From the NCBI GenBank assembly GCA_934778205.1, contig CAKVOD010000001.1, positions 126,769-190,768 on the forward strand: 64,000 nt of DNA, given 5' to 3'. The DNA comes from an uncultured Clostridia bacterium (GTDB lineage: Bacteria > Bacillota > Clostridia > Christensenellales > UBA1242). Position numbers and translations under genes: made by a program. Shown one piece after another: positions 7,950 to 8,307 of this stretch. The notes under the pieces are model-generated. The model was not told where the DNA came from, did not search any database, and saw only the letters and a program-made list of their open reading frames with translations. Position 1 is the stretch's first letter; the number at the start of each line of letters is the position of its first letter.

Positions 7950-8307
7950 GTAAGCCACCCACCCACATTGTCATTGCGAGGCAGTCAATGGAGTATTGTG
8001 CCAGCAATTGCGCATATCGCTCTAACTACCACATTAGGTACGTCCGCCCATACGAACCCGCCCATCCCTTGACAACGTGGCAATCTCCCGGAAGGGGGCA
8101 ATGTTGTTATGGCTACTAAAACACCTTGACAGCGCTAGCATACAAAATGGGTTCCTTTATTTAGTTGCTGACACGGTCAATATACTTTAGTACCCCATAA
8201 TATATCGGGTTGCCCTTCCGGGAGATTTCTCCACTACAAAGGCTTTAACAAGCCTTTTTCGGTCGAAATGACAATATGGGTTAGTAACTTACCATAATGA
8301 TAAGGTT
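7950..8307. repeat. Family-B element: two ~110-170 nt modules in inverted (head-to-head) orientation
   Basis: Left arm: ATTGTCATTGCGAGG ... GGCAATCTCCCGGAAGGGGG (8079-8098) ... TTGACAGCGCTAGCA. Right arm is the reverse complement: TGCTGACACGGTCAA ... CCCTTCCGGGAGATTTCTCC (8213-8232) ... TCGGTCGAAATGACAAT. Same architecture as 47208-47512. Confidence 0.8.

Follow-up and report, generated by a model that had tools for sequence, protein, structure and literature searches.

The described systems closest to the repeat reported here include the REP, BIME, and REPIN sequences of Enterobacteriaceae and Pseudomonas, which are strictly extragenic, occur in many copies around an imperfectly palindromic core, combine motifs as mosaics that often follow gene 3′ ends, and are long-lived and vertically inherited; REP units measure 20 to 40 nt and carry a conserved 5′ GTAG-type head beside a simple GC-rich stem (PMC2817692, PMC3116915, PMC3337134). 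BOX elements of Streptococcus pneumoniae (boxA-boxB(n)-boxC) are 67 to 637 bp long, are thought to be mobilized by an insertion sequence (IS) transposase, and are known to be transcribed, and bcr1 of the Bacillus cereus group is an intergenic repeat of ~155 bp with two independent stem-loops, whose stems are preserved by compensatory changes and whose flanking 5-bp direct repeats and uneven distribution among close strains mark it as mobile (PMC3184786). Family B, the subject of this report, was analyzed in 64,000 nt of an uncultured Clostridia bacterium (contig CAKVOD010000001.1, positions 126,769 to 190,768; referred to as the window), which form the replication-origin region of the chromosome and carry dnaA, dnaN, rpmH, rnpA, yidC, jag, mnmE, mnmG, and parAB. 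Family B is a real and not previously described noncoding repeat module of ~140 bases, found in a few uncultured gut Clostridia.

In kind, family B resembles BIME/REP arrays, BOX elements, and the bcr repeats of Bacillus. All of the extragenic, mosaic, and inheritance features listed above for BIMEs, REPs, and REPINs apply to it, as do their alternating orientation (six convergent pairs, head-to-head pairs, and an array at 47195 to 47624), regular spacing, and two arm types per pair. Membership in REP/BIME is not claimed because the unit, at ~120 to 145 nt, is far larger than the short REP palindrome (~20 to 40 bp) and no RAYT gene was found in the ~210 kb sampled. Family B also lacks the GTAG-type head, resides in a Firmicute host, has no sequence similarity to REPs, and was not seen as inverted copies flanking a RAYT gene in the DNA sampled; decay is described for REP singlets, but those of family B retain a perfect core. 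With BOX, it shares a Firmicute host, an intergenic location, a modular build with a predicted stable structure, conserved 5′ and 3′ blocks around an optional or variable middle block, and an overlapping size range. This BOX-like modularity, evident in an alignment of 29 full modules (A2), in the types and absence of the middle hairpin, and in half modules, concerns architecture only: the BOX middle is a repeated boxB unit and that of family B is a hairpin of unrelated types, present once or absent, and there is no sequence similarity. Like bcr1, family B is intergenic in a Firmicute, is of comparable length, has two predicted stem-loops that are independent of each other, and shows compensatory stem changes; unlike bcr1, it lacks flanking duplications, occupies the same sites across species, and has no similar sequence. 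These likenesses, and those to miniature inverted-repeat transposable elements (MITEs) considered below, rest on published descriptions (PMC2817692, PMC3184786, PMC3116915, PMC3337134) and on what is generally established for IS200/IS605, not on homology tests.

Copy number and anatomy of the module

The initial annotation had proposed family B from the letters of the window alone, and the family could be both verified and defined: every copy listed there was recovered, with motif counts far above chance. The 20-base core GGAGAAATCTCCCGGAAGGG matched the window five times with ≤3 mismatches (0.00 matches expected from shuffled sequence), exactly at 8213(−), 47268(+), 47416(−), and 59100(+) and with three mismatches at 8077(+). 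Motif GTCATTTCGACC matched 12 times against 4.1 expected, with every claimed site among the matches, ATGGTAAGTTACTAACCC four times against 0.02, and TAAGCCACYCACCC four times against 0.24; both flank motifs were enriched at the places where they had been reported. Scanning one genome per species for the exact core of block B2 yielded 27 further copies in 23 loci (L001 to L023), all from two uncultured Clostridia metagenome-assembled genomes (MAGs), CALDMJ01 and JBNMHN01. A hidden Markov model (HMM) built from 24 full modules recovered the window copies with nhmmer and gave 47 matches (copies or fragments) in the window and the 23 loci together, with a top score of 134 bits. An artefact, a chance pattern, ordinary terminators, or low-complexity intergenic sequence would fit the AT-rich intergenic setting, which is all that speaks for such an origin, but the core counts, the HMM scores, and the 27 exact core copies in two other genomes, with the same flanking blocks each time, refute it and leave it a negligible probability.

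Family B had not been assigned to any known family, and wider searches bore this out. A scan of the whole window against Rfam at the gathering threshold gave a single match, a ribosomal protein L10 leader at 32619 to 32779, and permissive scans (E up to 10) of 7700 to 8500 and 47100 to 47800 gave only chance-level matches far below gathering scores. These three scans, which cover riboswitch, small RNA (sRNA), and ribozyme families, including the IS605-orfB and HEARO/IscB-associated RNAs, rule out a known RNA family. Phage and plasmid records, viral contigs, and the literature, the last searched for family B as sequence strings, held no match, and three JGI metagenome matches, all without B1, were attributed to chance. 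Several other candidates were rejected. ARAGORN finds no tRNA or tmRNA in the window. A small protein gene is incompatible with hairpin indels that are not multiples of three, a pyrimidine tract of varying length, and stop codons that in some copies stand right after the candidate start codon. Hammerhead and hairpin ribozyme cores were absent by eye on both strands (CUGANGA...GAAA and N-GUC contexts), in agreement with Rfam. Block B0 was considered as an extended −10 promoter (TGnTAAGGT), but the −10 positions T1 and T6 are not conserved and a promoter scanner found no enrichment; the linker AAAGG-AAUA-CCUUU plus U-run was rejected as a terminator together with this idea.

Modules of ~120 to 145 nt are assembled from semi-independent blocks in the order linker (AATAAAGGAAnnCCTTATT), B0, B1, V1, B2, V2, B3, V3, and B4. 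B0 is (t)GGTAAGnnAC followed by a pyrimidine tract; the consensus sequences are TTGTCATTTCGACC for B1 (fuller layout form, ATTGTCATTTCGACC), GGAGAAATCTCCCGGAAGGG for B2 (fuller form, GYGGAGAAATCTCCCGGAAGGG), and TTGACMGCGYYAGC for B4, and V2 (~11 nt), B3 (TTATGRG), and V3 (~15 nt) lie between B2 and B4. V1 is optional, being either absent or a hairpin of 3 to 9 bp, and comes in about six sequence types that are common to different species. Several of these types (e.g., window 47436 to 47464 and copies in L011 and L014) are bracketed by a direct repeat, CCGAAG...CCGAAG, where hairpin-less copies show one CCAACG; the bracketing repeats suggest an origin of V1 through duplication or insertion at the tip of the hairpin. 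In a B-prime subfamily (window 33789, L010:2302, and L011:3009), a hairpin, GTGCCAGACGGCAC, follows GGAGA in place of AAATCTCCCGGAAGGG.

Two elements of the initial description of the unit gave way. Its asymmetric flanks, read as distinct left and right ends, are variants of the one homologous block B0 (GGTAAG-CC-AC and GGTAAG-KT-AC) that align column for column in A2; in five of six convergent pairs, the arms differ in this block, GCCAC on one and G(G/T)TAC on the other, and the GCCAC form is almost never found on single modules. The inverted pair of 300 to 360 bp is not the unit, which is the ~140-nt module itself, seen singly, in tandem, in six convergent pairs (B4 ends separated by 16 to 31 nt), in three to four head-to-head pairs, and as halves. 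Copies consisting of the 5′ half only were found in L011, L014, L018, L021, and L022, and 3′-half-only copies also occur.

Structure and conservation of the hairpin core

RNAalifold pairs B1 with B2 and folds the sequence that follows. The predicted core is a stem (ATTTC/GAAAT, internal loop GA/A, CCR/YGG, internal loop AA/GNNG), directly followed by a putative three-pair hairpin with a GGAA loop (CCC-GGAA-GGG). The B1-V1-B2 hairpin domain, 39 to 64 nt by itself, took one architecture throughout when it was folded for 38 copies (29 distinct variants), with V1 as a coaxial extension of the stem tip between the conserved internal loops, where its sequence and length would be free. In a MAFFT alignment of 34 copies, the V1 helix showed two-sided changes at eight of nine pairs, with 88.8% of cells paired; the whole structure was 94.9% paired, compared to 42 to 54% when partners were slid by one or two columns. 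A model-fitted alignment of 45 copies gave 93.2% pairing overall and two-sided changes at all nine V1 pairs, the copies being related by descent, so that cell counts overstate independent events. Compensatory changes were also found inside V1 types (GGCGAC/GTCGCC to GGTGAC/GTCACC, GGAAAC/GTTTTC to GGAAAT/ATTTCC, and GAGGC/GCCCTC to GATGC/GCACTC).

When every pair of columns was scanned, no covarying pairs emerged beyond V1. Three other candidate helices were rejected: pairing of the pre-B1 pyrimidine tract with TTATGRG of B3 (74.7% of cells paired, no better than a shuffled control), a V2/B4 helix (60% paired, weak covariation only), and a B1/B4 closing helix (85.6% paired but invariant). Of the structured RNA with fixed single-stranded landmarks that had been suggested, one covarying hairpin stands, and the several covarying helices expected of a structured noncoding RNA (ncRNA) were not found.

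A multicopy structured ncRNA, such as an sRNA, a 3′ untranslated region or read-through element, or a ribozyme-like RNA with the B1-to-B4 strand as the functional transcript, is nevertheless an alternative that we consider unlikely and not negligible. The invariant bases would then make tertiary contacts or bind protein, and V1 would be a dispensable variable stem; loop bases that do not vary, next to a hairpin whose sequence, length, and presence are free, form a classic signature of structured RNA. In most variants, the B1-to-B4 strand folds into the more stable structure of the two strands, the helices contain 26 G-U pairs against 13 A-C mismatches, and the closing pair varies (G-C in 11, A-U in 9, and G-U in 7), although this evidence for a strand is weak. 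Every copy that consists of a 5′ half alone points the same way as the genes on either side of it, but full modules show no orientation bias, and five of eight informative single modules are antisense to both neighbors; overall, the upstream gene is on the same strand in 12 cases and on the opposite strand in 13. Modules show no promoter enrichment in a promoter scan and no convincing terminator of their own, and several lie just past a terminator in spacer that is probably untranscribed. Minimum-energy folds of whole modules differ from copy to copy, half modules and block shuffling fit a single folded RNA poorly, only one helix covaries, and no Rfam match appeared even at the permissive threshold.

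The reading that we favor, and hold as an even call, is that family B is a lineage-restricted, noncoding, mosaic intergenic repeat of BIME- or BOX-like type with a hairpin core under selection. Its blocks combine as full modules, 5′ or 3′ halves, and tandem and alternating arrays in terminator-to-promoter spacers. A host factor would recognize the stem-loop, as single-stranded DNA or as read-through RNA, together with the invariant bases, and selection would maintain it, most likely as a binding site. The search for loci did not rely on B1, yet B1 is almost invariant, and full modules are 65% identical at the median; a 34-base core that stayed fixed while copies drifted to ~65% identity points to a sequence-specific partner, either protein or RNA. 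Most of the divergence among copies, and most changes in their number, would come from unequal recombination and gene conversion between them and not from continued cut-and-paste transposition; individual events below show this mode, which is probable as a general rule.

Several points weigh against this reading. The B1/B2 stem and the CCC-GGAA-GGG hairpin are invariant in typical copies, so that the sequences are compatible with pairing but do not demonstrate it; with both strands invariant, the B1/B2 pairing provides no covariation evidence. The B-prime variant (GGAGA followed by GTGCCAGACGGCAC) lacks the 3′ strand of the lower stem. V1 hairpins could be palindromic by origin, through insertion or template switching at the hairpin tip, and not through selection. 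An exact B2 core was the basis for picking the 23 outside loci, so that part of the B2 invariance seen in them reflects ascertainment. The module is much larger than a REP of 20 to 40 bp, and its function is a putative one. A single-copy partner enzyme, such as a RAYT, could lie beyond the ~210 kb inspected. The data for family B show neither an active mobile element nor a proven RNA gene.

A further, distinctly speculative option is that the B1/B2 stem-loop (ATTTC-GA-CCR...YGG-A-GAAAT and then CCC-GGAA-GGG) is the recognition or catalytic core of something undescribed, either a new class of structured RNA, e.g., a protein-sponging or self-processing motif carried on the repeat, or the DNA hairpin target of a domesticated HUH enzyme. 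The second case would amount to a Firmicute counterpart of REPIN-RAYT with a much larger modular unit and a single-copy enzyme in gut Clostridia. Should a cognate enzyme or transcript exist, REPIN/RAYT- or BOX-type biology would extend to a new phylum-level setting; with no partner, family B would be an ordinary repeat of one lineage, acting mainly to promote recombination locally.

Copies in the window, their age, and mobility

Pair 1 begins with a degenerate left arm at 7937 to 8142 (+), matched by nhmmer at 7937 to 7979 and 8081 to 8142 and by the covariance model at 7968 to 8096 (E = 1.7e-4). It consists of B0 in the GCCAC form (7951 to 7964), a B1-like ATTGTCATTGCGAGG (7968 to 7982), an insert in place of V1, B2 with three mismatches (8077 to 8096), and B4 as TTGACAGCGCTAGC (8128 to 8141). 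The insert, reported as ~90 nt, is present at ~7982 to 8076 with a length of ~95 nt. An AT-rich spacer of ~21 nt, delimited by sequence at 8143 to 8163, separates the two B4 ends. The right arm at 8164 to 8306 (−) is a full module (nhmmer, 121 bits; covariance model, 83 bits) with B0 at 8278 to 8295, B1 at 8261 to 8272, V1 (AAAGGCTT/AAGCCTTT) at 8233 to 8260, B2 at 8213 to 8232, B3 at ~8199 to 8209, and B4 at ~8169 to 8183. At the orthologous site in L007, the left arm is missing and the right arm is present without V1, which the window copy has.

Pair 2 belongs to a three-module array of alternating orientation at 47 kb. The arm nearest the CCA-enzyme gene (47195 to 47335, +; nhmmer, 117.5 bits; covariance model, 79.6 bits) is a full module with B0 in the GCCAC form at 47210 to 47223, B1 at 47228 to 47239, V1 (AAAGGCC/AAGCCTTT) at 47240 to 47267, B2 at 47268 to 47287, and B4 at ~47319 to 47333. 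The arm nearest jag (47367 to 47510, −; nhmmer, 116.7 bits; covariance model, 83.3 bits) is also full, with B0 at 47482 to 47499, B1 at 47465 to 47476, V1 (GGCGAC/GTCGCC) at 47436 to 47464, and B2 at 47416 to 47435. Head-to-head with it stands a decayed 5′ half at 47564 to 47624 (+), recognizable by sequence (TTGTTATTCAGAGC...AAACCC/GGGTTT...CGTAGGAATCTCGCGGATTC). The initial annotation had listed it as a degenerate copy at 47560 to 47640; it is a weak covariance-model match (E = 0.41; E = 0.11 for the L042 ortholog). A minimal single module without V1 lies between mnmE and mnmG at 59050 to 59167 (+; nhmmer, 96.9 bits; covariance model, 52.7 bits), with B0 at 59061 to 59078, B1 at 59083 to 59094, a loop AACGT, B2 at 59100 to 59119, and B4 at 59151 to 59164. 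The observation that the hairpin between TCGACC and GYGGAGA differs from copy to copy was upheld in each instance, including its absence at 59095, AAAGGC/GCCTTT at 47240 to 47267 and 8233 to 8260, and GGCGAC/GTCGCC at 47436 to 47464.

Four fragments were found by nhmmer within 33549 to 33977. The first, a B0 plus B1 remnant (GCCATTTCGACCGAAAGCGAC) at 33549 to 33608 (−; nhmmer, 29 bits; also seen in the sequence and strain alignment), adjoins, on the upstream side, the TTGACA-17-TATAAT promoter of a HAD hydrolase gene. A B1 remnant (GTTATTTCGACC) followed by a GTGCC-AGAC-GGCAC hairpin at 33671 to 33708 (+; nhmmer E = 0.007 and sequence) varies among strains. A B-prime 5′ half at 33760 to 33851 (+; nhmmer, 48 bits; covariance model, 42 bits) comprises B0 in the GCCAC form, B1, V1 (GGCGGAGGC/GCCCTCGCC), GGAGA, and then GTGCCAGACGGCAC for AAATCTCCCGGAAGGG; of the strains compared, the window strain alone has it, L036 and L037 lacking it. 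The hairpin swap described for this copy is borne out by GGAGA and GTGCC-AGAC-GGCAC at 33789 to 33851, and the variant recurs in L010 and L011. A 3′ half module (B3 TTATGGATTAC...B4 TTGACCGCGTCTGC) at 33924 to 33977 (+; nhmmer, model positions 86 to 139) is retained by both L036 and L037.

Searching with covariance models and the HMM extended the family beyond the window, but only to the window species (strain L042, ~96% identity) and relatives at 82 to 89% identity (CALDMJ01, JBNMHN01, and L047); strains L036 and L037 (96 to 98% identity) gave HMM matches only. Near the origin of more distant relatives (L029, L030, L031, and L038 to L046 apart from strain L042), both searches found no match. 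Six of these relatives (L029, L030, L031, L038, L041, and L044) have 66 to 83% nucleotide identity in aligned segments, and in L030, 8 nt separate mnmE from mnmG and the module is missing.

The copies are old, because full modules have diverged (pairwise identity at most 84.5%, and at most 83% within a genome) and stand at the same sites in different species. Modules occur at orthologous sites in species that are 82 to 89% identical (window/L007, L009/L012, L018/L022, and window/L047). Between such orthologs, the second arm is present or absent (window/L007 and window/L047), and the V2 stretch is swapped between L009 and L012; at pair 2, L047 has only the CCA-enzyme-side arm (47195 to 47335), and the jag-side arm, absent there, is present in L042. 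The locus at 33.6 to 33.9 kb measures 331, 111, or 39 bp among strains that are 96 to 98% identical. Since the indel separating the window from L037 is bounded by a direct repeat, GGTGCCGTCT, these differences point to unequal recombination between partial modules and not to transposition. For the 47-kb and 8-kb loci, the contigs recovered by way of jag and the 15-kb gene matched the window at 100% identity and carried no information on strain polymorphism.

HUH enzymes recognize hairpins, as in IS608 and REP/RAYT. A nonautonomous transposable element (MITE, palindrome-associated transposable element [PATE], or REPIN-like), still mobilized in trans by an enzyme encoded elsewhere, is a second alternative that appears improbable, although worth keeping in view; the candidate enzyme would be an HUH transposase of the IS200/IS605 or RAYT type that recognizes the imperfect B1/B2 hairpin in single-stranded DNA, and the mobile unit would be the convergent pair. 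Like MITEs (Correia/NEMIS and RUP) and the PATEs of IS200/IS605, family B is small, noncoding, repeated, and intergenic, and its convergent pair can fold into a long hairpin. The many dispersed copies, all intergenic, and the imperfect hairpin with conserved unpaired bases, which resembles those recognized by HUH enzymes, are consistent with mobilization in trans, as are the differing module content of one locus between species and the breaking of contigs at the repeats. Convergent pairs with a fixed spacer of ~21 nt and two kinds of arm also recall REPINs and the alternating REPs of BIMEs (PMC2817692, PMC3337134).

The hallmarks of a MITE- or PATE-like element, which the initial annotation had considered possible, were searched for and not found, and terminal repeats, duplications, and copy identity each rule out a place among the MITEs. 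Terminal inverted repeats are lacking in single modules, whose ends (aaCCTTAT..GGTAAG on the 5′ side and TTGACMGCGYYAGC on the 3′ side) are not complementary; inverted repeats exist only in convergent pairs, each made of two complete modules that also exist alone. Inspection of the flanks of 29 full modules revealed no target-site duplication and no variable or copy-specific direct repeat, and a recurring CCTT(T)ATT flank motif belongs to the repeat's own linker. Near-identical copies are lacking at the identities given above, and copies persist at orthologous sites across species. Instead of the clean presence or absence among strains that had been envisaged, three orthologous or strain comparisons gave complex or direct-repeat-bounded indels; the strain-level indels examined are not module sized, an internal direct repeat bounding one of them.

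An autonomous partner with the same ends, also envisaged, was not found in the ~210 kb sampled from these genomes (window, L001 to L023, and Pfam-annotated neighbors), which held no transposase, no TnpB/IscB, no IS encoding TnpA/TnpB with matching ends, and no RAYT gene flanked by inverted units. No transposase-like Pfam domain occurs among the genes called at window positions 5251 to 58605, and none of 148 open reading frames (ORFs) in the window and L001 to L023, the latter being simple ORF calls, is multicopy. The products of ORFs located between neighboring modules are housekeeping or surface proteins, an ATPase, and an exonuclease-like protein. Genes between nearby inverted modules in L011 and L003 (for a surface protein, an Fe-S protein, an AAA_14/DUF4143 ATPase, and an exonuclease-like protein) were rejected as partners, none being a transposase.

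A gene for an AAA_14/DUF4143 ATPase is also a strain-variable cassette in the window (ORF 36256 to 37599), absent from L037. The cassette is flanked by ~60-bp direct repeats (36160 to 36225 and 37683 to 37745) that contain GGAAAAGTGTA motifs; in L037, one copy of this repeat occupies the empty site. The gene in L003, of a homologous type, is located between family B fragments.

Genomic setting and neighboring features

Family B is strictly intergenic, with none of the 47 HMM matches overlapping a supported gene. In L007, L008, L023, and L047, the hairpin and T-run terminator of the oncoming gene directly adjoin the B4 end, leaving the module in the interval from a terminator to the next promoter. 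A conserved module resembling a terminator, in which GGTACATAGTnAATTnACTATGTACC is succeeded by a T-run and ATTGCTRRC, was observed in the window at 7691 to 7718 and 47652 to 47677 and in the same four loci, where it directly adjoins the B4 end of family B modules. Family A, a more abundant repeat of ~95-nt tandem units (CTCGGTGGGGATAGCCCCGCTGCTRCAGGT...TCCTACRAGTAA...GGACGGCA), lies downstream of many genes and occurs in the window at 7725 to 7860, 35692 to 35887, 47046 to 47171, 53790 to 53975, 54726 to 54951, and 58822 to 59032; a GCCACYCACC segment is common to it and the GCCAC form of B0. With the terminator-like module directly abutting B4 ends, families A and B form composite arrays.

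Family B repeats break short-read assemblies. Many MAG contigs end at modules, and a Logan contig (L028) that is 100% identical to the window ends inside the inverted pair at 47449. In an uncultured Clostridia lineage of the human gut, the family fills intergenic spacers and fragments metagenome assemblies, and knowing it helps assembly, strain typing, and annotation.

Other features of the window were noted. The presumed replication origin (oriC) is a very AT-rich stretch of ~500 bp at 54200 to 54700 with many short GTACTTA/AGTACT repeats, so assigned because it lies between the dnaN side and dnaA (start, 54987). The L10 leader (RF00557, 47.9 bits; − strand) lies upstream of rplJ-rplL. Pair 1 is preceded by a 2,519-amino-acid ORF without a Pfam domain (74 to 7633, +), and a cysteine-rich ORF of 138 amino acids without a Pfam match (9233 to 9649, +) follows a CLIPPER-domain protein. 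Where the window has 92 bp (27210 to 27302), strain L036 carries a 2.5-kb insertion (13858 to 16371) that encodes a DUF4276 protein and an AAA_15/AAA_21 ATPase and looks like a small defense-type island.

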